Shown in pieces: positions 14,168-32,558 of a DNA stretch of 64,000 nucleotides (position 1 is its first letter; every line of letters starts with the position of its first letter). The notes under the pieces were generated by a model. The model ran no database searches. It worked only from the letters and a program-made list of their open reading frames with translations, and had not been told where the DNA came from. Location of the stretch: contig JAKPQE010000150.1 of NCBI GenBank assembly GCA_029572955.1, positions 48,614-112,613 on the forward strand, read 5' to 3'. The stretch comes from Pseudomonadota bacterium. Lineage in GTDB: Bacteria; Pseudomonadota; Alphaproteobacteria; Rhizobiales; JAKPQE01. Position numbers and translations under genes: made by a program.

Positions 14168-14513
14168 TTCGAACCCGTACTCCCCGTCGGAGGTCCGTGT
14201 GGGATACCAGAATGCGCCCGATATCTCGACACAAGATTAAGGCCCGGGGACGGCACGCGGAAGAAAAACAGAGTTTTTCCAGAGGCCTTTTGCCCGGCCG
14301 TGCCATCCTTGCAACGACGCGCCTTGCTGCGGCGAAGACGAGAATGGCTTGCGAATTGTTCTTGGTTATGTTCGAAACAATGAATAAAACAATTCGACCT
14401 CGCCGGCATCGAGTGCCGGCCGACGATTCCCGTCGCCGGTGATCGGTCGCGAGACCGCTTTGCCTGCCCTTTCGACGGCCGAACCGGCCGAAACGAGCAA
14501 GGAACACGGACCC

Positions 14514-15503
14514 ATGAGCGAGCAGACCGCGCCGCAGGCGCAAGCAGAAGCCGCCGAGCCGCGGCTGAAGCATTTCCCGATCAGCTTCTTTGCCATCGTC
14601 ATGGGCCTGTCCGGCCTGACCCTCGGCGTCGAACGCCTCGAAATGAACCTCGGCGCGTCCCATTCGGTGAGTCTCGTCGTCCTCGTCGTCGCGCTTCTCG
14701 CCTTCATCGTGATCGCGACGGTCTACGGCCTGAAGGCCGCGCGCCACTGGGACGCGGTGGTCTGGGAGTGGCACCACCCGGTGCGGATCGCCTTCTTCCC
14801 GGCGGCCAGCATCTCGATCATCCTGCTCGCCACCGCCGCGCTGCCGTTCAGCCCGCAGGTCGCCTTCGTGTGGTGGGCGATCGGCTCGGCGCTCCATCTG
14901 GTCGGCACACTGTCGGTGGTGTCGGCCTGGATCGGCCATCGCGCCTTCGAGACGCCGCACCTCAATCCGGCCTGGTTCATCCCCGCCGTCGGCAACGTTC
15001 TGGTGCCGATCGCCGGCGTCCCGCTCGGCTTCGTCGAGATTTCCTGGTTCTTCTTCTCGATCGGCATCCTGTTCTGGATCGTGCTGCTGACGCTGGTGTT
15101 CAACCGGCTGATCTTCCACACGCCGCTGCCGGAGCGCCTGTTCCCGACGCTCGTGATCCTCGTCGCGCCGCCGGCCGTCGGCTTCGTCGCCTATATGCGG
15201 CTGGTCGGTGAGGTCGATGCCTTCGCGCGCATTCTCTACTATGCGGGCGTCGTCTTCTTCCTCGTCGTCGCGCTGCAGTTCCCGCGGCTGCTGCGCCTGC
15301 CCTTCGCGCTGTCGTGGTGGGCCCTCTCGTTCCCGATCGCCGCGATCACCGTCGCGACGCTGCTCTATGCCTCGAAGATCGGCAGCCCGGGCCTCGCCTT
15401 CTTCGGCTACGCCCTGCTCGCGCTGCTTTGCATCGTGATCCTGGTACTGGCAGTGCGGACATTCAAAGCAATTCGCGCACATAAAGTGTGCGTGCCGGAA
15501 TAA
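14514..15503 (+). CDS. TDT/SLAC1/TehA-family anion channel
   Basis: ~10 TM helices, FFAIVMGLSGL, HPVRIAFFPA, NPAWFIPAVG, LSWWALSFP. Confidence 0.88.
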   Translation: MSEQTAPQAQAEAAEPRLKHFPISFFAIVMGLSGLTLGVERLEMNLGASHSVSLVVLVVALLAFIVIATVYGLKAARHWDAVVWEWHHPVRIAFFPAASISIILLATAALPFSPQVAFVWWAIGSALHLVGTLSVVSAWIGHRAFETPHLNPAWFIPAVGNVLVPIAGVPLGFVEISWFFFSIGILFWIVLLTLVFNRLIFHTPLPERLFPTLVILVAPPAVGFVAYMRLVGEVDAFARILYYAGVVFFLVVALQFPRLLRLPFALSWWALSFPIAAITVATLLYASKIGSPGLAFFGYALLALLCIVILVLAVRTFKAIRAHKVCVPE

Positions 15504-16204: not shown

Positions 16205-17571
<1,367 letters not shown>

Positions 17572-17575
<4 letters not shown>

Positions 17576-19440
17576 GAAGCCTCGCTCCTCTGGTCGGCGT
17601 CAGGCAGGATAATGGTGAAGGTGGTGCCCTTGCCGAGTTCGCTCTCCACCTCGATGCGGCCGCCGGCGTGCTTGACGATGGCACGGCAGATCGACAGGCC
17701 GAGGCCGGTGCCGCGCACGCTGTCGGCGCGGCGGCTCCAGAACGGATCGAAGATGCGGCTGATGTCCTCGGCGGCGATGCCGACGCCGGTGTCGGCAATG
17801 GCAAGGGCGATCTCGCCGCCGACGCGGCTGCCGGTGATGGTCAGCGTGCCGCCGCCCGGCATGGCATGGAAGGCATTCTGGACGATATTCAGAATGAGCA
17901 TGCGCATGTCGCTGTCGGACGCGATGACGCGCAGGCCCTCGGCAAGCTGGACACGGACCTCGACCTTGTGCTCGATCGCCTCGAAGTTGATCAGCGAAAT
18001 GATGTCGGAGGCGACCTCGTCGAGGGCGATGAGGCTCGGGCGGGCCGGCGGCATCGACAGCTTCAAGAGCCGGTTGGTCACCGCGATGCACTTGTCGATC
18101 TCGGTGTTGACGATGTCCATGTAGTATTTGGCGTCCGGATGCGCGTCGAGACCGACGCGGCGCTGCATGGCGCGGAAGCCGAGGCGGATCGAGGCCAGCG
18201 GATTGCGGATCTCGTGAGCGACGCCGGTCGCCAAGAGGCCGATCTCGGACAGCTTCTGCTCCTGGGAGACGGCCATTTCCTGCGACAGATCGCGGATCGC
18301 CTCGACGACGGCGGGCTTGCCGCCCTCGGCGTCGTAGAGCGGCGCGACCGAGACCTCGACGTGGAATTCGGTGCCGTCCGGCTTCACATGGCGGTGCCGG
18401 CAGGTGAACGGGCGGGCGGATTCATCGAACTCCACCAGCGGGCAGGTCACGAAGGTTCCCGCACAGGGCTCCTCGCGCTTGTGGCTCGAGGCGTAGCACG
18501 GCGCGCCGATCACCTCGGCCATCGGCATGCCGACCTGTTCGCAATAGGCCCGGTTGGCCTTGACGACCTTGTAGTCCGGGCCGATCACCCGCACGCCGTC
18601 CGGGATCGCGTCCATCAGCGCCTGCAGGAAGGCTTCGCGGCCTTCGATTTCGTCGAGGCTCCTCGCGATGCGCTCGGCCATGGTGTTGAACGAGCTGCCG
18701 AGGTCGGCGAGCTCGTCGTTGCCGGCGACCGGGGCGCGAACGGTGTAGTCGCCGGCGGCGAGCGCCCGGCTCGTTTCGGTCAGCGCGCCGACCGGCGTCA
18801 GCACCCAGCGGTGCAGCATCATCCAGATGCCGAAGATCGAGGCGCCGACAACGGCGAGGCCCGAGGCGCCGAGCACCAGCGCGCCGGTCAGCGCATCGTG
18901 CTTGATGCCGGCCGCGGCGTAGTCGACGACGAGAATGCCGTTGACCGGATGGTCGGCCATCGACCCGTGGCACTGCTGGCACGGCTCGCGGTTGTAGACC
19001 GGGTTGACGCTGCGCAGCACTTCCATGTTGTCGGCATCGGTGAGGAACGCGCTCTGGGCGTCGCGGATCGGCAGCGTGCAGTTCGGGCAGAGCCGGTCGT
19101 TGGTGCCGTCGTAAAGATGGCCGAGCAGGCTGTCGTTCGAGGCGAAGCGGACCTCACCGTCGGGATTGACGATCATCACCCGCAGGATGCGCGCCTGCTC
19201 GCCGAGGCGATGGACGATGTCGCGCAGACCGTCGAGGTCGCGCTTCAGCATGGCGTTCTCGAGCGATACCTGCAGCAGCCGGTTGACCTGGGCCGAGGCC
19301 TCGGCGCGCTCCTTGACGAGGCGGTTGTGATAGGCGCCGACGAACAGGGCGAGGAACACCACCGATCCGGCGATGAGCCCGACGGCCATCGACAGGATCA
19401 GCTTGCGTCCGAGACCGCCGTGGACTTCGACCACCCGCAC
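17572..19440 (-). CDS. Sensor histidine kinase: periplasmic CxxCH domain, HAMP, Cys-rich PAS, HisKA-HATPase
   Basis: Two TMs flanking CPNC and CQQCH; AHEIRNPL H-box; DTGVGI; GTGLGL; 4-nt overlap with regulator. Confidence 0.92.
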
Positions 19441-19447
19441 CCCTCCC

Positions 19448-19924
19448 CTAGCGGCTCGACCAGAGACGCATCAGCATCGTCTCCTCGGGGATCGAGCCGG
19501 CTTCGATGCGCAGCGCGCGCGGCATCTCGACCGGCACGTCGACACCAAAGATGACGATCGGCACGACGACCGGACGTTGCCACGGCGTCGAAAGGAAGCG
19601 GGCGAACCAGGTGCGGCGCTCGGCCGGCGACTTGGTCGACAGCAGCGCCTCGACATTCTGCAAGGCAAGGCCGCGTTCGGCGGTCTCGGCGGCGATCCAC
19701 TCGTCGAGCGCCTCGAGCGGTATGCGGCCGGCGGCCGCGCCGTGCCGCGCCATCACGGTGGCGCGGAAATCGACGAAGTCGAGGCCGGCGGCGCGGGCGA
19801 TGCCGTGCAGGAGTTCGGGCCGATAGTCCGGCAACACGATGACGAAACCGCCGGCATAGCCGTGGCGGTCGATCAGGTCGACGATCGGGCGGGTGAAGGC
19901 GGTCGGCTCGGTCCGGTCGGTCAT
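19448..19924 (-). CDS. Hypothetical cytoplasmic protein in molybdoenzyme cluster
   Basis: ATGA coupling to upstream polyferredoxin; ends just before kinase RBS. Confidence 0.7.
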   Translation of the reverse strand: MTDRTEPTAFTRPIVDLIDRHGYAGGFVIVLPDYRPELLHGIARAAGLDFVDFRATVMARHGAAAGRIPLEALDEWIAAETAERGLALQNVEALLSTKSPAERRTWFARFLSTPWQRPVVVPIVIFGVDVPVEMPRALRIEAGSIPEETMLMRLWSSR

Positions 19925-20994
19925 TCGAGCACCTGGAACAGATTGCGGTTGTGGTCGACGCGCCGGCAGATGCGGCAGGTGCGCTCGCCGGTGTCGCGCT
20001 CCTGCGGCTCGGCGAAGGGCGCGCCGCATTTCGTGCAGCGCCGGGCGACCAGCCGCAGTTCGGTGCGGCGCGGGCGGGCGAGCCGCTCGACGGTGATCGC
20101 CGCCTCGTCGCAGATGTCGACGCAGAGGCCGCAGCCGGTGCAATTGCCGGCGATGATGCGATAGCTCCAGCCGACGCCGCTGGTGCCGTCCATCAGCAGC
20201 GCGCGATGGCGGCAGATGCGCACACAGGCCTCGCAGGCGGTGCAGCGGGCGCCGTCGATCGCCGGCACGTAGAGCGACAGCGGGCTCTCCTCGACCGGCG
20301 CCGGGGCCGGGGCCGGCGTCGCGGCCTGCTTGCTGCGGGGCCTGAGAAAGGCCGTGAACAGCTCGCGGCGCTCGAGATGAGGCAGTCCGCCGGGCCGGTC
20401 GTTGCCGGAAAGGTCGCGGTGCCAGGTGTCGCGATCGAGGCGACGCACGAGGATCGGCTCGCTGCCGCGATCCTCGGCGAGCGCCCGGAACTCGCCGACC
20501 GCGTCGTCGAGACGCCGCCCGACGCCGCGCGGGCAGTCGTCGCAGGCGACGTCGGTGACGACGATGGTGCGCACCGAGTTGGCGTGGAGACGGGCAAGAT
20601 CACGCAGGCCAAGGGCATGCAGGCAGGGCATCACGGCCTCGTCGGCGGTGACCCCGGCCCGTTCGCAGGCGCCATAGGCATGGTCGCCGCCCGCCACCGC
20701 CCGCACCGCGAGGCCGCGCGGCAGCGACAGCGCCTCCTCGGGACAGGCCGGCAGGCAGAGACCGCAACCGTCACAGGCTTCGGTGTCGAGGCCGAGCCCC
20801 TCCTCGCCGAGCAACCAGGCACCGCGCGGACAGGCATCGACGCAGGCGCGGCAACTCGCCAGCGGGCTGCGCGCATGCACGCACCGCCCACCGTCGCATT
20901 CCGGCAGCACGGGGGCGGAAGCCCCCCGAAATCGCTCTTCGCTCGGCATTCCAGTTCCGGCTCCAGCCGTCGGGCTCGCGACCCGATCCGTCAC
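19921..20994 (-). CDS. Polyferredoxin-like 4Fe-4S protein (probable maturation/electron-transfer factor)
   Basis: CRACVDACP, CDGCGLCLPACP, CTACEACVRIC, CTGCGLCVDIC, terminal CxxC pairs; GTGA overlap with chaperone gene. Confidence 0.85.
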   Translation of the reverse strand: MTDRVASPTAGAGTGMPSEERFRGASAPVLPECDGGRCVHARSPLASCRACVDACPRGAWLLGEEGLGLDTEACDGCGLCLPACPEEALSLPRGLAVRAVAGGDHAYGACERAGVTADEAVMPCLHALGLRDLARLHANSVRTIVVTDVACDDCPRGVGRRLDDAVGEFRALAEDRGSEPILVRRLDRDTWHRDLSGNDRPGGLPHLERRELFTAFLRPRSKQAATPAPAPAPVEESPLSLYVPAIDGARCTACEACVRICRHRALLMDGTSGVGWSYRIIAGNCTGCGLCVDICDEAAITVERLARPRRTELRLVARRCTKCGAPFAEPQERDTGERTCRICRRVDHNRNLFQVLE

Positions 20995-21728
20995 CAGCTC
21001 GGGCCCGCACCTGGAAAATAGGTCGCGGGCTCGTCCGTTTCAGTCTCCTCTTGCGCCTCTTCGACCACCGGCTCGGGGCGCGGCAGGTCGAGCGCCTCGG
21101 CCAGGTAGTCGCGCAGCTCGTCGAGATAGGCGGCGATCACCAGGACGAGGCCACCATAGAACGGCGAGCGGCTGCGGCCGGAGACGCGCAGCGCGAAATC
21201 GCCGACCCAGCGCAGCGGATGCTCGTCGAGGAAGCGGGCGGCGTCGGCCGGCGCATGCGGCGCCTCGGCGGCGAAAAGATGCGCCAGGAAGGCGAGCTGC
21301 AGCCCGACGAAGTCCTCCGTGCGCCGGCTCCAGTCCTCGGCGGCAAGTCCGTAATGAGCATACCACTTCCGGATCTCGAACATCGGCCCCTGTCGCTCGA
21401 GATTTTCCTTGTCGAGCCAGACGGATTCGTTGGGCGAGGCCTGAAACGCATAGTTGAGGAAAATGTCGGCGTAGTCCACGGCGAGCCGATCGAGCGCGAC
21501 CGGGTCGACGGGGTCGCCGAGTTCGGCAAGGCCGGCATCGATCAGCCGGAAACCGTCGGCGGCCGCTTCGCTCGCCAGTTCCAGGCCGAGCCATCCGGAA
21601 GCCGGAACGGCCGCGAGCCCGGCGACTCGTTCGCCGTCGAGCTCGCGGTCGACCAGCGCGGCAAGGAGGCCGAGATCTGTCGACAGGATTTCGCGGACGG
21701 TGGCATCGAGGCCCGGTCCTGCGCTCAT
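20991..21728 (-). CDS. TorD/DmsD-family molybdoenzyme chaperone
   Basis: SPNESVW, EDFVGLQLAFLAHL, FLDEHPLRW. Confidence 0.85.
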   Translation of the reverse strand: MSAGPGLDATVREILSTDLGLLAALVDRELDGERVAGLAAVPASGWLGLELASEAAADGFRLIDAGLAELGDPVDPVALDRLAVDYADIFLNYAFQASPNESVWLDKENLERQGPMFEIRKWYAHYGLAAEDWSRRTEDFVGLQLAFLAHLFAAEAPHAPADAARFLDEHPLRWVGDFALRVSGRSRSPFYGGLVLVIAAYLDELRDYLAEALDLPRPEPVVEEAQEETETDEPATYFPGAGPSW

Positions 21729-21816: not shown

Positions 21817-22482
21817 CTATTCGATGATCGCCTTGGAGTGCGGCACGAATGCGATGGACGGGTTGGTCAGCTGCCAGTCAGCCATGTTGCGCACCCGGCG
21901 CACGACCTTGTCGTTCGGACCGATCGCCTTGGTCTCGTAAGATCCCTCGCGGATCTTCTCGATCGGGCCGACGTCGAGAACGCGCATCATGCAGGCCATC
22001 ACGCAATAGGGCTTGCGGCCGGCTTCGAGCTCGTCGATGCACATGTTGCACTTCACGACGGTCTTGGTTTCCGGGTTGTACTGCGGGGCACCGAACGGGC
22101 AGGACGCCTCGCAACGCCGACACCCGATGCACAGCGTCGAGTCGATGTCGACGACACCGTTGTCGGCGCGCTTGAAGATCGCCCCGGTCGGGCAGGTCGG
22201 CAAACACGCGGGTTCCGCGCAGTGATTGCACGACATGTTGACCTTGTAGGCGAACACCTCCGGGAAGCTGCCACCCTCGACATACTGGACCCGACGGAAA
22301 CGCGGTCCGGGTGGCAGGCCGTTCTTGTCCTTGCAGGCGATTTCACAGGCACGGCAGCCAATGCAATCGACGTTGTTGTGTACGAAGCCCCACTGCTCGT
22401 CAGGCACCACCGGCGTATAGGTGACGCGCTTGCGAGCCTTCACGGCTTCCTTGACCTTTGCCTTGTCCAATTCAGCGGCCAT
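21817..22482 (-). CDS. DmsB-like four-cluster [4Fe-4S] subunit
   Basis: CIGCRACEIAC, CNHCAEPACLPTCP, CIGCRRCEASCP, KCNMC...CVMAC; no signal peptide. Confidence 0.92.
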   Translation of the reverse strand: MAAELDKAKVKEAVKARKRVTYTPVVPDEQWGFVHNNVDCIGCRACEIACKDKNGLPPGPRFRRVQYVEGGSFPEVFAYKVNMSCNHCAEPACLPTCPTGAIFKRADNGVVDIDSTLCIGCRRCEASCPFGAPQYNPETKTVVKCNMCIDELEAGRKPYCVMACMMRVLDVGPIEKIREGSYETKAIGPNDKVVRRVRNMADWQLTNPSIAFVPHSKAIIE

Positions 22483-22506: not shown

Positions 22507-25068
22507 TCACATATCCCGCCTGAAGACATGGCTGCGCGCGGTGGCGAGCTTGTCCCAGACAGGGCGGTGATCGAGGTCGGATTTCTTGATATTCGCAAGC
22601 ACGGTGTTGTAGGCGAACGCGCCGGCCGGGCTCGGATTGTCCAGCGTGAGGAAATCCGGGTTGCCGGAACGGTCGACACCGTTCTCGTCGAGGTCCATCC
22701 AGGCGCCTTCATGAAGCACCAGGACGCCGGGCATGCAGCGCTCGGTGACATAGGCCGGAACCACCACCTTGCCGCGGTCGTTCCAGATCTCGCACATGTC
22801 GCCGGTCTTGATGCCGAGCTTCTTGGCGTCGGAGGCGTTGACGGTCACTTCCTGCTCGTACGTCTCGCGCAGCCACGGGATGTTGTTGAAGATCGAGTGG
22901 GTGCGCCAGCGCGGATGCGGGCTGATCATGTGGAACGGATGGTCCTTGGTCTTCGGGCTGTTCAGCGATTCCCAAGGCTCGATCCACTTCGGGATGTACG
23001 GGATCTCGTAACCGTACTGCGTCTTCGTCCAGTCGGTGATGTTGGCGAGCTGGCCCGACAGGATCTCGATCTTGCCGGAGGCCGTCTGGAACGGAACCCC
23101 CTTCTCGATCTGGTCGCGGAAGGCGACGTGCGGCTGCTCCTGCTTGAACTTGTAGACGCCGAGGTTCTTGAACTCCTCCCAGGTGACGTCGACGTGGCTG
23201 TGATGGGACATCTTATCCCACCAGGCAACGAGATAGGCTTCGTCGACCGGGTCGTTGTTCAAGAAGTACTCCCGCGTGGCGCGCGGATTGTACTGCGGGC
23301 CGAAGCCGAGACGGTAGGCGAGCTCGGTGAAGATCTGGAAGTCGGTCTTCGACTCGCCCATCGGCTCGATGACCTTCGGCCGGTGGATGTAGTAGTGGCC
23401 CTTGTACCAGGGCAGCGCCACGTCGTGCCGCTCGAAGTGAGTGGCCACCGGAAGCAGGTAATCGGCCCAGATACCGGTCGGCGTGATGGTGGAGTCCATG
23501 CACACCAGCAGGCTCTCGCTGTCCCCCTGGGACTCGAGCTTGCGGATGGCCTCGATCTCCTTGTTGATGTTGGTGAGCTGGTTGAACCAGTCCGATCCCT
23601 GCCAGAAGATGCCGCGAATGTTCGGCACGACGCCGTCGAGCTGGTCGTTGCGCGGCCACAGGCCGACTTCCTCGCGCTTCACGTTCGGATAGTTGAGCAC
23701 GATGTGGGCCCAGCGATCCGACTTGATCGAAGCGAACCAGACATTGGCGAACTGGTCGTAAGGATAGGCGACGGCCTCGGAATGCCAGCCCTTGCCGACG
23801 CCTTCGGCGCAGCCGCCGAGGATGCCGATATTGCCGGTGATGGACTGCAGGCCGGCGGCCATGCGGTTGTACTGCTCGCCATAGGCGTTGCGGCCCGGAG
23901 ACCAGGACGCCTTCAGCGCCGCAGGCTTCGTCGTCGCATACATATGGGCGAGCTTCTTGATGTCGTCGGCCTTGACGCCACAGATCTTCTCGGCCCATTC
24001 GGGGGTCTTCGGCGTGTCGTCGTACTTGCCGAGGATGTAGTCCTTCCAGTTCTCCTTGCCCTTTGCCCAGTCGGGCATGGTGCCTTCGTCGACGCCCTGC
24101 GTGAACTTGTCGATGAAGTCCTGGTCGTGGAGATTGTTGGTGAAGATGTAGTGGGCCATGCCGGCCATCATGGCGGCATCGGTGTTCGGCCGGATCGGGA
24201 TCCACCAGGCATCATAGGCGGAGGCCGAGTCCGTGTACTGCGGGTCGATCAGCACGAACTTGCAGCCGCGCTGCTTGGCGAGCCGCATGTAGTAGAACGT
24301 GTTGCCGCCGTGGAACGTGTAGGCCGGGTTCCAGCCCCACATGATGATCAGCTTGGAATGGGCGAACGCGTCGTCCTCGTTGCCGTCTTCGATGGTGCCG
24401 AAGGTCATGCGCGAGGAGAAGGTCGTGCCCTGATAGGACGGCACCGACCAGGACGAGGTGCGGCAGCCGAACATGCCGAGGAAGCGGCCGAGAAGGCCCT
24501 CGATCTGGTCGGACTTGTGCAGCACGCCGTATGACGCGCCGGCGTAGGACTGGTCGACCAGCGCCTGCGGACCGTACTTGGTCTTCAGGTAGACCATGCG
24601 CTCGGAGATCTCGGTGAGCGCCTGCTCCCACGAGATACGCTTGAACTTCGACTCGCCGCGCCGGCCGACCCGCTTCATCGGATAGAGCAGACGTTCGGGC
24701 GAATAGAGGCGCGAGCGATAGGACCGGCCGCGCAGACAGGCGCGCAGCTGGGGCTCTTCCTCGGTATCCTTGCCGAACTCGCCATCCTTCTGATAGCGGC
24801 CGTCGTCGGTCGAAAGGCGAACGATCACGTCACCCTTCTTGTGGGCGACCAGCATGTGGCGCGAACCGCAATTGTGGGCGCAGCTCGTCGGTACGGTGAC
24901 GAGATCGTCGTCGCGAGGGTAAGGCTCGTAGGCGAAGGCTTCGGCCTTTTCCTCGAAGCCCGGCATCGGCACGAGGCCGGCGGCGGCACCCGCCGCGCTC
25001 GCCTTCAGGAAGCTGCGCCGATCGAGAGTGACGGCGCTTCTCACCCGGTTTTGAAGGTCCTGTTTCAC
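22507..25068 (-). CDS. Tat-exported DMSO-reductase-family bis-MGD molybdoenzyme catalytic subunit (DmsA-like, substrate unknown)
   Basis: DRRSFLK Tat motif, CAHNCGSRH, RACLRGRS, RLLYPMKRVG, WIPIRPNTDAA, HPRWRTHS; GGAG RBS before GTG. Confidence 0.93.
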   Translation of the reverse strand: MKQDLQNRVRSAVTLDRRSFLKASAAGAAAGLVPMPGFEEKAEAFAYEPYPRDDDLVTVPTSCAHNCGSRHMLVAHKKGDVIVRLSTDDGRYQKDGEFGKDTEEEPQLRACLRGRSYRSRLYSPERLLYPMKRVGRRGESKFKRISWEQALTEISERMVYLKTKYGPQALVDQSYAGASYGVLHKSDQIEGLLGRFLGMFGCRTSSWSVPSYQGTTFSSRMTFGTIEDGNEDDAFAHSKLIIMWGWNPAYTFHGGNTFYYMRLAKQRGCKFVLIDPQYTDSASAYDAWWIPIRPNTDAAMMAGMAHYIFTNNLHDQDFIDKFTQGVDEGTMPDWAKGKENWKDYILGKYDDTPKTPEWAEKICGVKADDIKKLAHMYATTKPAALKASWSPGRNAYGEQYNRMAAGLQSITGNIGILGGCAEGVGKGWHSEAVAYPYDQFANVWFASIKSDRWAHIVLNYPNVKREEVGLWPRNDQLDGVVPNIRGIFWQGSDWFNQLTNINKEIEAIRKLESQGDSESLLVCMDSTITPTGIWADYLLPVATHFERHDVALPWYKGHYYIHRPKVIEPMGESKTDFQIFTELAYRLGFGPQYNPRATREYFLNNDPVDEAYLVAWWDKMSHHSHVDVTWEEFKNLGVYKFKQEQPHVAFRDQIEKGVPFQTASGKIEILSGQLANITDWTKTQYGYEIPYIPKWIEPWESLNSPKTKDHPFHMISPHPRWRTHSIFNNIPWLRETYEQEVTVNASDAKKLGIKTGDMCEIWNDRGKVVVPAYVTERCMPGVLVLHEGAWMDLDENGVDRSGNPDFLTLDNPSPAGAFAYNTVLANIKKSDLDHRPVWDKLATARSHVFRRDM

Positions 25069-25091: not shown

Positions 25092-26036
25092 TTACTTTTT
25101 CAGCTGATAGCGCGGATCGGATTCGGTCGGGCGATCCTTGGCCCAGTCAGGCACGTCCGTGTCCATGCCTTCCCAGGCATGACGCGGATACGGATAGGAA
25201 ATGCGGTACCACTGGCGGCCGCCATGGCAGCCGTAGCAGACGTCGGAGCTCGACTTGCCCGCTTCCTCGATGGCTTCGGCGTTCAGGTAGCTGACCTGAT
25301 GGCGCACGGTGCGGAAGAGTTCGCCATGGCAGCTGAGGCAGCCATTGGGTTCCTCCGGGCTCTCGAGGTCGGCGCGGAACTCCGGCCAGGGCGCCGTTCC
25401 CATGATCTCGTAGGGATAGGAGCCGTGGCAGCGCAGGCAGGTCTCCGAAGGATTGACCATCTTGCGCAGCGTGAAAGGCTCGCTGCCGTTGTTCGAGGTC
25501 ATGTCCGCGGCGGCGACCGTCACATGCGGGCTTTCCTCGCGCGGGTCATTGCCCTGGTGGCAGAAATTGCACTGCAGGTTCATGACCTGCTTGGCGTAGT
25601 CCGAGGTCAGGTGGCGCTGGTGGAAGGTCATCTGCTCACCGGCGTAGGTATCGAGCGTCTGATACCAGGCGAGCGACTTCTCGGCCTCGACGCCGGCCTG
25701 CGACTTCGGCAGGACGTTGTCGGAAAGCACCTCCTGGTGGCACTTCAGGCAGTCCTCGTTGGACGCCTTGTCGATCGCCGGCTTGAAATGGATCGGATCC
25801 CAGCGGTCCCGATCGTAGCTGGCGGGCTTGGCGGCCGCGTCGGTCTTGGCCGGCGTGGCGGTCTTCTTGTCCGCGGCAGCAACGACGATCGCGCCGTCGG
25901 CCGCCACAGTCGATGACGCGCCACGGTCGGTCGGCACGTCGGAGACGAATTGCTGGCTGGCGGCATAGGCGCCCGCGGAGAGCGCCACAACGCCGCAAAA
26001 AGTCAGCAACGACTTGAGTTTCCTGTTCGATTTCAT
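25092..26036 (-). CDS. Periplasmic pentaheme c-type cytochrome
   Basis: Sec signal ending AYA; CLKCH, CNFCH, CLRCH, CLSCH, CYGCH. Confidence 0.88.
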   Translation of the reverse strand: MKSNRKLKSLLTFCGVVALSAGAYAASQQFVSDVPTDRGASSTVAADGAIVVAAADKKTATPAKTDAAAKPASYDRDRWDPIHFKPAIDKASNEDCLKCHQEVLSDNVLPKSQAGVEAEKSLAWYQTLDTYAGEQMTFHQRHLTSDYAKQVMNLQCNFCHQGNDPREESPHVTVAAADMTSNNGSEPFTLRKMVNPSETCLRCHGSYPYEIMGTAPWPEFRADLESPEEPNGCLSCHGELFRTVRHQVSYLNAEAIEEAGKSSSDVCYGCHGGRQWYRISYPYPRHAWEGMDTDVPDWAKDRPTESDPRYQLKK

Positions 26037-26141
26037 GGCCCCGGGCCTTTTCGCGCTTTGCCGCAGATGCAGTCCGCAACCCGGGGCCGACCGGCTGGCG
26101 GCCGGCCCCGAAATGCATTTTTTTCGTCACTTGGCGAGGGC

Positions 26142-27197
26142 TCAGTTGCCCGTCTGGTAGGTCCACTGGGTGCAGGACCAGTTGCCCGCACCGGACATGC
26201 CGCCCATGCCCGACATACCGGACATGCCACCCATGCCGGACATGCCACCCATGCCGGACATGCCACCCATACCGGACATGCCGCTCATGCCACCCATACC
26301 GGACATGCCGCTCATGCCACCCATGCCGGACATGCCGCTCATGCCGCCCATACCGGACATACCGCCCATACCGGACATGCCACCCATGCCGGACATACCG
26401 GACATGCCGCCCATGCCGCCCATGCCGGACATGCCGCCCATGCCGCCCATGCCGGACATGCCGCTCATGCCACCCATGCCCGACATACCGCTCATGCCGC
26501 CCATGCCGGACATACCGCCCATGCCGCTCATACCGGACATGCCGCCCATGCCGGACATGCCGCTCATGCCACCCATACCGGACATACCGCTCATGCCGGA
26601 CATACCGCCCATGCCGCTCATACCGGACATGCCGCCCATGCCCGACATACCGGACATGCCGCTCATGCCGCCCATATCGTTGCGGGCGCTCCACTGAGTG
26701 CAGACCCAGCCGGGGCCGGTGCCGCCCATGCCCGACATACCGGACATGCCGCCCATGCCGCCCATACCGGACATGCCGCTCATGCCGCCCATACCGGACA
26801 TGCCGCTCATGCCGCCCATACCGGACATGCCGCTCATGCCGGACATGCCGCCCATACCGGACATGCCGCTCATGCCGCCCATACCGGACATGCCACCCAT
26901 GCCCGACATACCGGACATGCCGCCCATGCCCGACATACCGCCCATGCCGCTCATGCCGGACATGCCGCTCATGCCACCCATACCGGACATGCCGCCCATG
27001 CCGGACATACCAGACATGCCACCCATGCCGGACATACCGCCCATGCCGGACATGCCGCTCATGCCGGACATTCCGCCCATGCCGCCCATACCGGACATGC
27101 CATCCATGCCGGACATGCCGCTCTGCGCGATCGCGGGCAGCGCCAGCGCACTGCCGAACACCATCGCGAGGGCTGCCTTAGAGATGTGCTTCAACAT
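26142..27197 (-). CDS. Secreted methionine-rich tandem-repeat protein (G-M-S/G)n with two WxCTQW motifs
   Basis: RBS AAGGGAGA, signal peptide MLKHISKAALAMVFGSALALPAIA, synonymous third-position variation in this frame, co-oriented with cluster. Confidence 0.85.
   Translation of the reverse strand: MLKHISKAALAMVFGSALALPAIAQSGMSGMDGMSGMGGMGGMSGMSGMSGMGGMSGMGGMSGMSGMGGMSGMGGMSGMSGMSGMGGMSGMGGMSGMSGMGGMSGMGGMSGMSGMGGMSGMSGMSGMGGMSGMSGMGGMSGMSGMGGMGGMSGMSGMGGTGPGWVCTQWSARNDMGGMSGMSGMSGMGGMSGMSGMGGMSGMSGMSGMGGMSGMSGMGGMSGMSGMGGMSGMGGMSGMSGMGGMSGMSGMGGMGGMSGMGGMGGMSGMSGMGGMSGMGGMSGMGGMSGMSGMGGMSGMSGMGGMSGMSGMGGMSGMGGMSGMGGMSGMSGMGGMSGAGNWSCTQWTYQTGN
26196..27116 (-). repeat. 9-bp coding tandem repeat in two blocks (44 and 54 Met codons)
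   Basis: CAT every 9 nt over 26727-27116 and 26196-26675. Confidence 0.95.
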
Positions 27198-27245
27198 TTC
27201 CATTTCTCCCTTGATCCTTGCCTGCATTTCCATCCTGTCCGGTGG

Positions 27246-27262
27246 AGCCGTCGACGCGCCAA
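27246..27262 (-). promoter_or_regulatory. Possible sigma-54 -24/-12 promoter for the Met-rich gene
   Basis: Minus strand TTGGCGCGTCGACGGCT: GG-N10-GC spacing, weak -12 element. Confidence 0.4.
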
Positions 27263-27373
27263 AACTCGGCCGGGCTCCGACCCGGAGGCACTCACGCCAC
27301 CGATCTTAGCGTCGGTGCGGCGCAATCGAACGACACTGCGATACCTGCTCGGACAGCGGCGAGGCCGCCTCGG

Positions 27374-27688
27374 TCACGAACCGTTGCCGAACCAGCCGCG
27401 GATGTCGTAGGGACCGGGCATGCCGGGGCGCGTGAACGGCGTGTACCAATCACCCTGGCGATCGAGGAAATTCAGCGACGGCGGATAGGGCGGTTCGACG
27501 CCCGTCAGCGCGTGCTGATACCAAGCCTGGTCATGTTTGACTTCGGTGATCGCCGGCGCGCCTGCGGGCCGTTGATCGGGTGCCGTTCCGGCAATGAATT
27601 CTTCCTCGGCGCTCCATGCCGGCAATGCACCAACGCACGCCGCACCGAGTATCGCCGCAATGACTGCAAGCTTCGTGGCCGATCTCAT
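27374..27688 (-). CDS. Small exported Pro/Trp/Tyr-rich hypothetical protein, first gene of cluster
   Basis: RBS GAGGGGG, signal peptide ending AWSA, IAGTAPDQRP...PFTRPGMPGPYDIRGW. Confidence 0.75.
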   Translation of the reverse strand: MRSATKLAVIAAILGAACVGALPAWSAEEEFIAGTAPDQRPAGAPAITEVKHDQAWYQHALTGVEPPYPPSLNFLDRQGDWYTPFTRPGMPGPYDIRGWFGNGS

Positions 27689-27928: not shown

Positions 27929-28034
27929 TTCTGCCGCACCTTTCGGAAGGGGTTTTCGGCGGGCAAAAACAGCTCCGGGGTCTCGCGGCAATGGCCGCAA
28001 AACCCCGGAAAACCTTCCATCTCGGGGAGACGTG

Positions 28035-30703: not shown

Positions 30704-31783
30704 TCACCCGGCCTGCCAGTCGACCTTCCGGCGCAGCCGCATGACGTAGCCGATGACCTCGGCGACGGCCTTGAAGTGCTCCTGCGGGATTTCGTCGTCG
30801 AGTTCGACGGTCGCGTGCAGGGCGCGGGCCAGCGGCGCGTTCTCCACAACCGGTACCTGATTCGCCTCGGCGATTTCGCGAATCTTGAGCGCCGTGGCGT
30901 CGACGCCCTTGGCGACGCAGATCGGCGCCGGCATGCCGCTCTCGTATTTCAGCGCGACGGCGAAGTGGGTCGGGTTGGTGATCACCACCGAGGCCTCGGG
31001 CACCTTCTGCATCATGCGGCGACGGCTGCGTTCCATGCGGACCTGGCGCAGCTTGGCCTTGATGGTCGGATCGCCTTCCATCTGCTTGTACTCGTCGCGC
31101 ACCTCCTTGATGGTCATGCGCTGGCGCTGGTGCCAGCGTTGGCGCTGCCAGAGGAAGTCGAGGCCGGCAACGACGGTGAGGACCGCGACGACGCCGCCGA
31201 GCAGCTTCAGGGCGAGGTCGCGGATCATCGGCATCAGCGCGGCGAGGTCGGCCGTCAGGATGGTGTCGAGCCGGTCGCGCTCGGGCCACAGGATGACCAC
31301 CATCAGGGTCGAGACGATCGACACCTTGACGAGGCCCTTGAGGAAGTTGACGAGGCTTTCCTTGGAGAAAAGCCGCTTGAAGCCGCTCAGCGGCGAGACC
31401 TTGGAGAGCTTCGGCGTCAGCGGCTCGACGGTCCAGACCGGCTTGTGCTGGACGATGTTGCCGGCCGCGGCGGCGATCATGAACAGCAGGAACGGCAGCA
31501 GCATGGCGCCGATCACGCCGAGGCCGAGGCCGAGCCAGAGGCGGCGGAGGCCGCCGCCGTCCATCGGGATCGAGTGGGCATGCTCCATGACGCCGCGCAG
31601 CGTCGCCGTCAGCCCGGTCGCCATCGACGGCGCGAGGGCGGCGACGAACAGCGCCGCGCCGGTGATCACGAACCAGGAATTGACCTCCTGGCTCTTGGCG
31701 ATGTCGCCGCGCTTGTGCGCATCGTCGATCTTCTTTTGGGAAGGTTCTTCTGTTTTTTCCGATTCGTCGGGTTCGTCGGCCAT
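30704..31783 (-). CDS. flhB: Flagellar export protein FlhB
   Basis: EKTEEPS, NPTH autocleavage motif. Confidence 0.96.
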   Translation of the reverse strand: MADEPDESEKTEEPSQKKIDDAHKRGDIAKSQEVNSWFVITGAALFVAALAPSMATGLTATLRGVMEHAHSIPMDGGGLRRLWLGLGLGVIGAMLLPFLLFMIAAAAGNIVQHKPVWTVEPLTPKLSKVSPLSGFKRLFSKESLVNFLKGLVKVSIVSTLMVVILWPERDRLDTILTADLAALMPMIRDLALKLLGGVVAVLTVVAGLDFLWQRQRWHQRQRMTIKEVRDEYKQMEGDPTIKAKLRQVRMERSRRRMMQKVPEASVVITNPTHFAVALKYESGMPAPICVAKGVDATALKIREIAEANQVPVVENAPLARALHATVELDDEIPQEHFKAVAEVIGYVMRLRRKVDWQAG

Positions 31784-31796
31784 GACGCGCGCTCCG

Positions 31797-32558
31797 CTAG
31801 TGGACGACGAACCTGCCGAGCAGCATTTCGACGTGGTCGAGGTACCACATCATCACCGCTCCGATCAGGAACATCAGAAGAATGAAGCCGACCATGATGC
31901 TGGCCGGCATGGCGATGAAGAAGATCTGCAACTGCGGCATCAGCCGCGACAGAATGCCGAGGCCGAGGTTGAAGATGAGGCCGAAGACGATGAACGGCGC
32001 GGCGATCTGGATGCCGATGACGAAGGTCTCGGTGATCGTGCGCAGCGCCGCGGCGCTGAAGTCGCCGACCGGCCAGGTCTCGCCGGGCTGGAACATCGTG
32101 TAGGAATCATAGAGTGCCGCGAGCACCAGATGGTGCAGGTCGGTGACGAAGATCATCGTCAGGGCGAGGATAGTCAGGAAGTTGCCGATGATCGCGCCCT
32201 GCTGGCCCTGGCTCGGATCGACGCTGAGGGCGAAGCCGAGGCCCATCTGGAAGGCGATGGTGGTGCCGGCGGTCTGCAGCGAGGTGGTGATCATGCGGGC
32301 GATGAGGCCGAGGCCGAAGCCGATCATCAGCTCGCCGGCGAGCGCCGTCAGGACACCGGCGAACGAGGCCGGCATCGCCGGATAGGCACGGCTGACGGCG
32401 GGATAGAGCACCAGCGTGATGGCGAGGGCGAGCGACAGGCGGATGCGCGCCGGCATGGTGCGCTCGCCGATCGCCGGCATCAGCATGACGAGCGTGCCGA
32501 GCCGGGCGAACATCAGCATGAAGAGAAAAGCCGTCTGAGGCAGCAGCGAGATCGTCAT
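31797..32558 (-). CDS. fliR: Flagellar export protein FliR
   Basis: Hydrophobic, FQMGL, RLMPQLQIFF; position. Confidence 0.94.
   Translation of the reverse strand: MTISLLPQTAFLFMLMFARLGTLVMLMPAIGERTMPARIRLSLALAITLVLYPAVSRAYPAMPASFAGVLTALAGELMIGFGLGLIARMITTSLQTAGTTIAFQMGLGFALSVDPSQGQQGAIIGNFLTILALTMIFVTDLHHLVLAALYDSYTMFQPGETWPVGDFSAAALRTITETFVIGIQIAAPFIVFGLIFNLGLGILSRLMPQLQIFFIAMPASIMVGFILLMFLIGAVMMWYLDHVEMLLGRFVVH

Follow-up and report, generated by a model that had tools for sequence, protein, structure and literature searches.

A secreted X-Gly-Met repeat protein linked to a DmsA-like molybdoenzyme in Pseudomonadota, and its possible role as a periplasmic methionine oxidant sink

A stretch of 64,000 nucleotides from an alphaproteobacterium of the order Rhizobiales (assembly GCA_029572955.1, contig JAKPQE010000150.1, positions 48,614 to 112,613 of the forward strand; hereafter the window) encodes a protein with a predicted Sec signal peptide that consists largely of X-Gly-Met triplets. 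This protein, called poly-GM here, is encoded beside a DmsA/YnfE-like molybdoenzyme with a twin-arginine translocation (Tat) signal and, as judged from sequence comparison, is tied to that enzyme as tightly as the enzyme's own subunits. The reading preferred here, tentatively and at a little less than an even chance, is that poly-GM serves as a high-capacity periplasmic sink for oxidants, which cycles between Met and Met sulfoxide and is recycled by the adjacent enzyme of the S-oxide reductase type. A short earlier note made from the window's letters alone (the original prediction) had named oxidant scavenging as one possible role. That role gains support from the operon shared with an S-oxide-reductase-type molybdoenzyme.

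Anatomy of poly-GM and of its repeat

The poly-GM gene starts at position 27197 and is preceded by a Shine-Dalgarno sequence (GGGAGA) 7–12 nt 5' of the ATG. The signal peptide has Lys residues in its n-region, then a hydrophobic core, and ends in the cleavage motif A-I-A. The mature protein has 327 residues including 98 Met (30.0%), 140 Gly and 63 Ser. Charged residues number three in the mature chain (one Arg and two Asp; no Lys, Glu or His), and Pro accounts for 2 of the 351 residues of the whole protein. Met follows Met at an interval of exactly three residues in 96 of the 99 intervals of the whole protein, a periodicity that exceeds chance by far. The repeat is made up of two blocks that together hold 97 X-G-M triplets in register, and each block is closed by a unique aromatic and Cys-containing stretch of the W-x-C-T-Q-W type, called an island here. 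Translation confirmed the 24-aa signal peptide, the 44 and 54 Met of the two blocks, the 98 Met in 327 mature residues and the coordinates given by the original prediction, with the 54 Met of the second block made up of 53 triplets and one Met directly before them. Because the mature chain has no Lys and a single Arg, it is invisible to tryptic proteomics.

A structural model of poly-GM made with AlphaFold 2 (AF2) from the single sequence has a mean predicted local distance difference test (pLDDT) score of 41.3. The strands longer than three residues in this model are confined to the two islands (Table 1; block-mean pLDDT 63), a low-confidence hint that the islands may pair with each other and close block 2 into a loop. 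The composition and the low pLDDT support the earlier description of the protein as an intrinsically disordered thioether polymer.

At the DNA level, the Gly codons of poly-GM are GGC (101), GGT (39) and GGA (1), and the Ser codons are drawn from both families (TCC 37, TCG 6, TCT 2, AGC 19, AGT 1). These counts bear out the earlier observation that third codon positions vary while G-M is kept. The 97 repeat units comprise 11 distinct 9-mers in which GG and ATG are constant in all 97, and the third position of the Gly codon is C in 69, T in 27 and A in 1. Neighbouring units are identical in DNA in 3 of 96 pairs, Tandem Repeats Finder gave periods of 18 and 27 that match at just 73–78%, and exact internal repeats reach at most 61 nt. 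The repeat is thus old and degenerate and no product of fresh slippage. Besides the coding frame, sense frame 2 and each of the three antisense frames run through the repeat without a stop. Spurious long open reading frames (ORFs) over the repeat were observed at 26170-27309 (+) and 25636-26694 (-), with translations such as MPPMPDIPDM... and HGRHVRY..., and automatic annotation could choose the wrong strand or frame there. The antisense repeat reads M/I-P-D/P/L and has Met in 31 of 44 positions of block 1; since antisense Met is incomplete, invariant residues are confined to the proposed frame.

The gene is internal to a 135.8-kb contig. Contigs built at k=31 from three sludge-type metagenome DNA runs matched both flanks with 0 differences and entered the repeat from both sides, and none among the listed pieces of these runs spanned the whole repeat. 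With no exact copy longer than 61 nt, any read or k-mer above that length should resolve the repeat number. The copy number in the window is therefore plausible, and an assembly artefact is an unlikely source of poly-GM. Several other contigs of the same genome (G000) terminate within GM repeats. GM runs in this genome were located at C79:234-905, C79:31612-31887, C97:33771-34331, C130:28395-29723 and C2:8317-10245, at the start of C68 and at the ends of C175 and C107; five of its GM runs lie at contig ends, so that GM repeats break this assembly. The genome also encodes a second free-standing secreted poly-GM of ~115 aa.

In a marine-sediment metatranscriptome (run X15), 26,046 short contigs gave 90–99% matches to the GM repeat when compared with positions 26111-27120. 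Loose ends of these contigs translate to GQWVWMPS and GYFKITP, which are island motifs of gammaproteobacterial members. The contigs hint weakly at transcription of poly-GM relatives; some DNA may be present in the library, and depths cannot be ranked.

Linkage to the molybdoenzyme and the gene cluster

A species-level scan with one genome per species yielded at least 578 relatives of the enzyme, and the best 80 (78–83% identity) were compared as loci. They span alpha-, beta- and gammaproteobacteria, including Hyphomicrobiaceae, Filomicrobium, Paracoccus, Rhodovulum imhoffii, Candidatus Competibacter, Sedimenticola and Candidatus Thiodiazotropha. The scan also identified carriers that are in culture, among them Rhodovulum imhoffii DSM 18064, Paracoccus endophyticus, Paracoccus panacisoli, Sedimentimonas flavescens and Zhengella mangrovi. 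A poly-GM ORF was found upstream of the enzyme in 69 of the 80 loci. It is complete with a signal peptide akin to the window's in 46, cut by a contig end in 19, interrupted by N in three and frameshifted in one (L055). Among the 11 loci without poly-GM, the available upstream DNA is 2112 nt or less in nine, and just L052 and L079 have 6 kb. Over the same 80 loci, the cytochrome was found in 79, DmsB in 79, TorD in 75, the kinase in 63, the ferredoxin in 59 and the regulator in 57. The small exported protein u152, whose gene is the first of the cluster, was detected by tblastn upstream of poly-GM in 49 of the 80, most of the others being short of upstream DNA. Enzyme orthologues with 75–93% identity were also found in 5 of 40 order-level relatives, with a Met-rich X-G-M ORF upstream in all five. 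A co-distribution test covered 41 relatives, with a poly-GM match defined by E <= 1e-10 and a DmsA orthologue by at least 75% identity. Poly-GM was present in six of six genomes with the enzyme clade vs one of 35 without it; these genomes are related and not independent, and the six carriers belong to five families. The lone match without the enzyme clade (G035, 23–34% identity) is probably a different Gly-rich protein. Contig C50, which carries a DmsA paralogue (36% identical), had no GM-rich ORF.

The 46 complete orthologues range in length from 82 to 435 aa (median 260) and in Met content from 10 to 125 (median 65). Residue X is Ser 1450 times, Gly 997, Ala 79, Asp 76, Gln 58 and Asn 38, among others, and G-M is kept. 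An island of the W-V-C-T-Q-W-T-Y type recurs, as G-W-V-C-T-Q-W-T-Y in most alphaproteobacterial and some beta- and gammaproteobacterial members. Islands in Thiodiazotropha, Sedimenticola and Chromatiaceae read G-Y-F-K/Q-I-T-P-Q-G-Q-I-F-F-Y-P-A (usually twice) and G-Q-W-V-W-V-P. Many members end in W-T-P-P or are Lys-rich at the end, 12 of the 46 have no Cys, and three orthologues (L026, L032, L041) are free of islands. Two loci show 100% identity over 2501 nt of dmsA DNA, and their poly-GM differs by an in-frame indel of 24 aa of repeat; the copy number therefore drifts without loss of the frame. Long, unbroken poly-GM ORFs on contigs of 0.77–5 Mb (L031, L035, L038, L043, L056, L067, L080, L081, L089) indicate that the extreme repeat count is no short-read artefact as such. 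The earlier claim of selection on the peptide, and not slippage alone, is strongly supported by these 46 orthologues, which keep G-M while X, copy number and islands vary. One divergent member, L025 (G004:C1, 13298-14215, -), has X = Y, P, R or G (GMYGMYGMPGMYGMGGMRGM...) and a Cys-free island, GHWVWVPAG; it lies upstream of two u152-like ORFs, so that the gene order differs.

At the family level, the sequence of the enzyme places it in the S-/N-oxide reductase type. The closest solved structures are Rhodobacter dimethyl sulfoxide (DMSO) reductases and trimethylamine N-oxide (TMAO) reductases, the best being DorA (1eu1, ~238 bits). The Mo-ligand Ser147 of DorA aligns to Ser211, and 69 of the 80 loci carry the motif WSVPSYQG. 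DorA Tyr114 aligns to Tyr175 (motif in 76 of the 80), and the position of DorA Trp116 is Gly in the alignment to solved relatives. The traits of the TIGR02166 subfamily that were found are the Ser Mo ligand, the Tat signal, the DmsB-like partner and the TorD-like chaperone; the score stays below the curated cut-off, and a periplasmic pentahaem cytochrome stands in place of a DmsC-type anchor. The first Fe-S motif (residues about 60-75) is C-x3-C-x3-H, in which the His presumably replaces the third Cys of the DmsA-type motif. This motif may bear on the Fe-S-centred catalysis claimed for DmsA paralogues in the available text of PMC13524816.

Reports also exist on DMSO-reductase-like genes in the symbionts of lucinid clams. 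Such a gene is among the top-expressed genes or proteins, alongside aerobic oxidases, in the accessible parts of three reports (PMC6872982; PMC12172469; 10.64898/2025.12.05.692423), and dmsB and dmsD are within the top 100 transcribed orthogroups (PMC12172469, in part). In three Candidatus Thiodiazotropha genomes, the enzyme orthologue scores 614–629 bits vs ~220 for the next-best match to the DmsA model, all below the cut-off. We infer that the expression reports concern this cluster. In the Thiodiazotropha cluster, an additional monohaem cytochrome c of 128 aa is encoded between chaperone and ferredoxin (L100:10086-10472 +), and in these loci the kinase and the regulator lie upstream on the opposite strand.

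Nine genes of the window's cluster lie on the same strand in the order u152, poly-GM, pentahaem cytochrome c, Mo enzyme, DmsB-like subunit, TorD-like chaperone, ferredoxin, kinase and sigma-54 regulator (Table 1).

Table 1. Poly-GM, its parts and the surrounding features of the window
Feature	Position	Strand	Description
Poly-GM gene (P0001)	26142-27197	-	351 codons + stop (translation of ORF)
Sec signal peptide, poly-GM residues 1-24	27126..27197	-	MLKHISKAALAMVFGSALALPAIA followed by Q; cleavage motif A-I-A/Q, read from sequence
Repeat block 1, residues 26-157	26727..27122	-	44 X-G-M triplets (X = S 28, G 15, D 1)
Island 1, residues 158-174	26676..26726	-	GGTGPGWVCTQWSARND; AF2 strand 163-169
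Repeat block 2, residues 175-334	26196..26675	-	One Met + 53 X-G-M triplets (X = S 32, G 21)
Island 2 + C-terminus, residues 335-351	26145..26195	-	SGAGNWSCTQWTYQTGN; AF2 strand 339-345
u152, small Sec-exported protein	27374..27685	-	103 aa from MRSATKL, ~78 aa mature; first gene of cluster
Hairpin, 14 bp, G+C-rich	26080..26112	-	In 105-nt spacer, poly-GM to cytochrome gene
Pentahaem c-type cytochrome	25092..26036	-	314 aa, 5 CxxCH, Sec signal; Pfam Cytochrome_C7 + related
Catalytic subunit with Mo-bis(pyranopterin guanine dinucleotide) (Mo-bisPGD), DmsA/YnfE-like	22507..25068	-	853 aa, Tat-exported; Pfam Molybdopterin, Molydop_binding, TAT_signal
DmsB-like four-cluster Fe-S subunit	21817..22482	-	221 aa; Pfam Fer4_11; TIGR02951 191.9 bits (cut-off 214.1)
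TorD/DmsD/NarJ-family Tat proofreading chaperone	20991..21728	-	Pfam Nitrate_red_del; TorD, DmsD matches below cut-off
Cys-rich poly-ferredoxin	19921..20994	-	357 aa; several Fer4 families; weak NapF, NapH matches
Sensor histidine kinase	17572..19440	-	HAMP-PAS-HisKA-HATPase; family matches
Sigma-54-dependent response regulator	16205..17575	-	NtrC/AtoC/ZraR type; family matches
Terminator-like hairpin + T-run	27973..28010	-	After preceding hybrid kinase gene; upstream boundary of the cluster's transcription unit
TehA/SLAC1-family anion channel gene	14439-15503	+	Opposite strand, just past sigma-54 regulator
flhB (Bac_export_2) + fliR (Bac_export_1)	30704-32558	-	Upstream of hybrid kinase; unrelated to poly-GM

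The pentahaem cytochrome gave weak NrfB-like and DmsE-like NCBIfam matches. The poly-ferredoxin has no evident signal peptide or membrane helix and is possibly a NapF-like maturation factor. Among the annotated ORFs of the window from 16 to 28 kb, no DmsC/NrfD-type family match was found. The spacer between the poly-GM and cytochrome genes has a minimum free energy of -50.1 kcal/mol (z = -2.5 vs mononucleotide shuffles), and strong hairpins were observed 3' of the poly-GM stop in all 12 orthologues viewed (90 nt, among L026-L042, without control regions). The hairpin is possibly a partial terminator, an attenuator or an mRNA stabiliser, and could raise poly-GM mRNA above enzyme mRNA. Of 50 orthologous loci, 33 have a -24/-12 sigma-54 promoter (score of at least 9 out of 11) 34–124 nt 5' of u152, compared with 7 of 144 background windows. 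The best site upstream of the window's own u152 scored 7/11, which is at background level, and a sigma-70 promoter scan of the window's cluster found none.

The protein u152 has no Pfam or NCBIfam match. A profile of 41 orthologues matched 274 clusters among 1.84 billion representatives, mostly of 90–150 aa. Its motif, DQGxWYTPFxxPGMTGPYDIRGWH, occurs in free-standing proteins, as a tandem duplicate (P0073) or fused to cytochromes. Fusions were found to a pentahaem cytochrome (P0200) and, at the C-terminus, to class-I monohaem cytochromes c (P0192, P0213, P0132, P0207, P0188). From these natural fusions, u152 belongs with the electron-transfer chain and not specifically with poly-GM, and the retention of u152 without poly-GM in L052 fits such a module. 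An AF2 model from the 41-sequence alignment (pLDDT 68.7) has hardly any secondary structure; u152 may be a docking module, or may provide a haem or metal ligand through its conserved Met/His.

In other organisms, membrane-anchored tetrahaem quinol dehydrogenases of the NapC/NirT type (P0005, P0008, P0030, P0064) also carry C-terminal poly-GM tails of ~80–100 residues. These tails could represent an independent link by fusion between poly-GM and respiratory electron transfer. A metagenome scan seeded with P0005 returned 35 loci in which the GM tail alone was matched, and five of them (L110, L115, L118, L135, L137) are the same DmsA-type cluster.

The proposed methionine cycle and competing explanations

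In the proposed cycle, hypochlorous acid (HOCl), chloramines, H2O2 and peroxynitrite would oxidise the exposed Met residues of poly-GM to Met sulfoxide and so spare envelope proteins. The Tat-exported enzyme would then reduce the Met sulfoxide back, with electrons reaching it via the DmsB-like subunit, the pentahaem cytochrome c and u152. The tiny flanking residues (Gly before, Ser or Gly after) and the disorder of the chain would let the Met side chains reach into the deep Mo funnel, and the two aromatic islands would probably pair mutually or dock the polymer. Oxidation of Met in vivo, the oxidant that matters, the enzymatic re-reduction and the electron route are what we infer from an enzyme of the S-/N-oxide reductase type, its tight linkage to poly-GM, and two precedents. 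The first is MrpX, described in the available text of PMC4436054 as a periplasmic Met-rich peptide that is co-transcribed with YedY/MsrP, oxidised by reactive chlorine and re-reduced. The second is DorA, which, in the portion of PMC7402097 that was accessible, reduces protein-bound Met sulfoxide and prefers QWGAGM(O)QAEED, with Gly preceding the Met sulfoxide.

Several observations weigh against this reading. The genome has other candidate Met sulfoxide reductases, namely one of the MsrP type (PF00174, contig C131), one MsrA and two MsrB, and an argument from the absence of such enzymes therefore failed. The top NCBIfam model for the enzyme, DmsA/YnfE TIGR02166, gave 603.3 bits vs a cut-off of 777.7. 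Salmonella DmsA paralogues were reported in 2026 as extracytoplasmic sulfate reductases independent of the molybdenum cofactor (Moco) (PMC13524816, in part), so that the assignment of a substrate by homology is unsafe in this clade. L052 keeps u152, cytochrome and enzyme and has no poly-GM. The cluster has no gene for a quinol dehydrogenase, and the extra cytochrome of Thiodiazotropha and the fusions of u152 to class-I cytochromes also fit electrons flowing into the cytochrome c pool; an enzyme that feeds, rather than draws on, this pool would fit. GM runs occur in unrelated periplasmic proteins of this genome (a dihaem cytochrome c, a LysM-type protein, a lipoprotein and a Sel1 protein) and, elsewhere, in NapC/NirT cytochromes, DsrE, CusB-like adaptors and multicopper oxidases, and the motif is therefore not specific to the enzyme. 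Among the contigs of the RNA run X15, none lay on the unique flanks of this poly-GM gene. Frame breaks were also found in L055, in the tail of L093 (one of the 46 complete) and in the same-genus genome G001. Frameshifted repeats in relatives had been named in advance as evidence that would count against the protein; a minority is indeed broken, and the remaining complete orthologues keep the frame. In G001 the repeat region is split over several frames and the DmsA gene is also broken, which reflects either operon decay or indel errors of assembly rather than a family-wide problem.

A non-redox role is rather unlikely, in which poly-GM, as a mildly hydrophobic and disordered spacer, would be a flexible tether, scaffold or holdase for the cytochromes and the enzyme or for unfolded or hydrophobic clients of the periplasm, with the islands as stickers. 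It draws on the GM linkers or tails of the NapC/NirT proteins above, of dihaem cytochromes c (P0011, P0025) and of envelope proteins in this genome, on the neighbouring u152 as a module that is fused to cytochromes, and on the stickers-and-spacers layout in which islands are the sole modelled strands. The Gly-Met tail of GroEL is, in the available text of PMC11978752, a known functional element. Of known sequence motifs this (GGM)n tail comes closest, and it is likewise a flexible, disordered Gly-Met tripeptide repeat, but it has about a dozen residues and sits on a folded chaperonin in the cytoplasm, whereas poly-GM is a free exported chain of 97 triplets. A tether would leave unexplained why a free chain carrying as many as 125 Met should be linked specifically to an S-oxide-reductase-type enzyme and why Met is invariant where any flexible residue would serve, and L026, L032 and L041 have no islands to act as stickers.

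Quite unlikely is a periplasmic sponge for Cu(I)/Ag(I), a role also raised by the original prediction, or for other thiophilic ions, which would perhaps shield the Mo/Fe-S enzyme. Met at i and i+3 is the spacing of Cu(I) Mets motifs, and the M-x-x-M pattern of Met-rich Cu(I)/Ag(I) binders is present in poly-GM, trivially from the repeat. In addition, short GM runs occur in CusB-like adaptors of the resistance-nodulation-division (RND) type (P0022, P0027, P0032; L138-L143) and in multicopper oxidases (P0069-P0071; L133, L140). Known Cu/Ag-binding Met-rich regions, however, have His, Asp or Glu as co-ligands and lie in metal-resistance operons, whereas the mature poly-GM has 0 His, 2 Asp and 0 Glu, and no cop, cus, pco or sil gene is present in the cluster or in the window from 14 to 32 kb. 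The cluster regulator is of the sigma-54 NtrC type, whereas CusR and CopR are OmpR-type regulators. The linkage to a Mo enzyme in 69 of 80 loci also argues against a metal sponge. SilE, which is disordered and rich in Met and His, acts as a sponge for Ag+ in the periplasm (PMC5008109, in part), and the Met-rich domains of CueO recruit Cu+ (PMC12041951, in part). SilE/PcoE, CueO, CopA and CusF/CusB resemble poly-GM in being periplasmic, Met-rich and partly disordered with M-x-x-M (same sources), but poly-GM has no His, and metal genes are absent from its cluster.

It is improbable that poly-GM scavenges a reactive by-product of the enzyme's own reaction, such as hypohalous acid from a halogen oxyanion. 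A parallel exists in MrpX, which lies in a perchlorate reduction island and guards against hypochlorite made by respiration (PMC4436054, PMC4623255, both in part). The main substrate of the enzyme, which no curated family model assigns, would then be something other than poly-GM. The enzyme nevertheless has a Ser ligand and similarity of the DorA/DmsA type, and its Mo ligand presumably differs from that of perchlorate and chlorate reductases. No chlorite dismutase (PF06778) was found in the 98.7%-complete genome or in the cluster, and (per)chlorate respiration is thus disfavoured.

A long shot is that poly-GM is more than an oxidant decoy and is the physiological, self-made substrate of the enzyme, i.e., a rechargeable Met/Met sulfoxide redox pool in the periplasm that takes up or buffers electrons when conditions shift between oxic and anoxic. 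If true, each chain would offer up to 125 two-electron sites, charged and discharged by the DmsAB-type enzyme and the cytochromes. This would explain an abundant "anaerobic DMSO reductase" in the oxygen-respiring symbionts of lucinid clams and why sludge and sediment bacteria, which go through redox cycles, commonly carry the cluster, and would constitute an enzyme-polymer redox pair without a described counterpart.

A sulfur-globule protein or a sulfur/Met store, the latter also suggested by the original prediction, was rejected because neither explains the obligatory link to the enzyme and because the carriers among the alphaproteobacteria are not known to accumulate such globules. Lastly, it is scarcely credible that poly-GM is a product of slippage, misassembly or a gene on the other strand and has no function, as might be argued from the four other open frames, from the many contigs of this and other assemblies that end in GM repeats, none of three DNA runs spanning the window's, and from the several frames of G001, since 46 complete orthologues have signal peptides, several of them on 0.77–5 Mb contigs, conservation extends to the unique islands, the coding frame alone keeps G and M invariant, the repeat is degenerate in DNA with no exact copy beyond 61 nt, and the broken DmsA of G001 points to the assembly or the operon and not to the family.

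Known systems and significance

The system that most resembles the proposed sink is MrpX-YedYZ (MsrPQ) of Azospira suillum PS, for which a Sec-exported Met-rich protein is co-operonic with a Tat-exported sulfoxide-reducing molybdoenzyme (PMC4436054, in part). The same logic, a sacrificial Met sink that is recharged enzymatically, is proposed for both. According to the available text of that report, MrpX is small, with 20% Met and 44% charged residues, whereas poly-GM has 351 aa, 30% Met, 3 charged residues in 327, X-G-M periodicity and islands. The partner of poly-GM belongs to the DMSO reductase (Mo-bisPGD) family and is accompanied by a DmsB-like subunit and a pentahaem cytochrome, whereas that of MrpX is the sulfite-oxidase-family MsrP with the haem-b protein MsrQ. 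Poly-GM comes under a sigma-54 two-component system and MrpX under SigF/NrsF, the comparison with MrpX being by description and not by sequence. Poly-GM thus shares with MrpX the signal peptide and the high Met content, and does not share the small, charged character or the yedYZ/msrPQ operon under SigF/NrsF.

With DorA and DmsABC (1eu1, 1dmr; PMC7402097, in part) the enzyme shares the superfamily, the Ser ligand, the equivalent of Tyr114, Tat export, a TorD/DmsD chaperone and a DmsB-like partner. The cluster differs in that it has neither a DmsC anchor nor a DorC-type membrane cytochrome, and has instead a soluble-looking pentahaem cytochrome and u152.

Poly-GM resembles collagen-like proteins (PF01391; Lcl, Scl2/SclB) in having Gly at each third residue, and the Pfam Collagen model gave 32.1 bits vs a cut-off of 27.2. 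Unlike collagens, it has 2 Pro, few charges and no trimerisation domain, and NCBIfam models gave 39–40 bits vs cut-offs of 325–500. The collagen triple helix is stabilised by Pro-rich or charged X and Y positions and by a trimerisation domain; the AF2 model of poly-GM had no helix or ordered repeat. The match is due to composition, and the name "collagen triple helix repeat protein" is therefore misleading. A looser analogy exists with the GGCGG swinging arm of SoxYZ, by which a Gly-flanked reactive sulfur enters the active sites of partner proteins, one of them a molybdoenzyme. It is an analogy only, SoxY having one Cys at the C-terminus of a folded protein vs ~100 Met in a disordered chain.

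No description of a poly-GM family, or of its link to the enzyme, was found in the literature outside subscription journals and supplements. In the Protein Atlas, u152 matched unnamed clusters only, and poly-GM matched just one cluster, auto-named collagen with a score of 0.89. An exact look-up of six orthologue sequences among cluster members matched none of them. The system has been overlooked for technical reasons, namely the lack of tryptic sites, repeats that break assemblies and a misleading database name. A natural disordered polymer with 30% Met and sticker motifs is also of interest for redox-responsive gels. The cluster is widespread (at least 578 enzyme relatives), and its carriers include the Thiodiazotropha symbionts of lucinid clams. 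Overall, if the proposed cycle is true, the DMSO-reductase-family enzyme and its extreme poly-(X-Gly-Met) partner would constitute a second, mechanistically distinct periplasmic Met oxidant sink, and would offer a testable answer to the puzzle of the highly expressed "DMSO reductase" in lucinid symbionts (PMC6872982; 10.64898/2025.12.05.692423, both in part).

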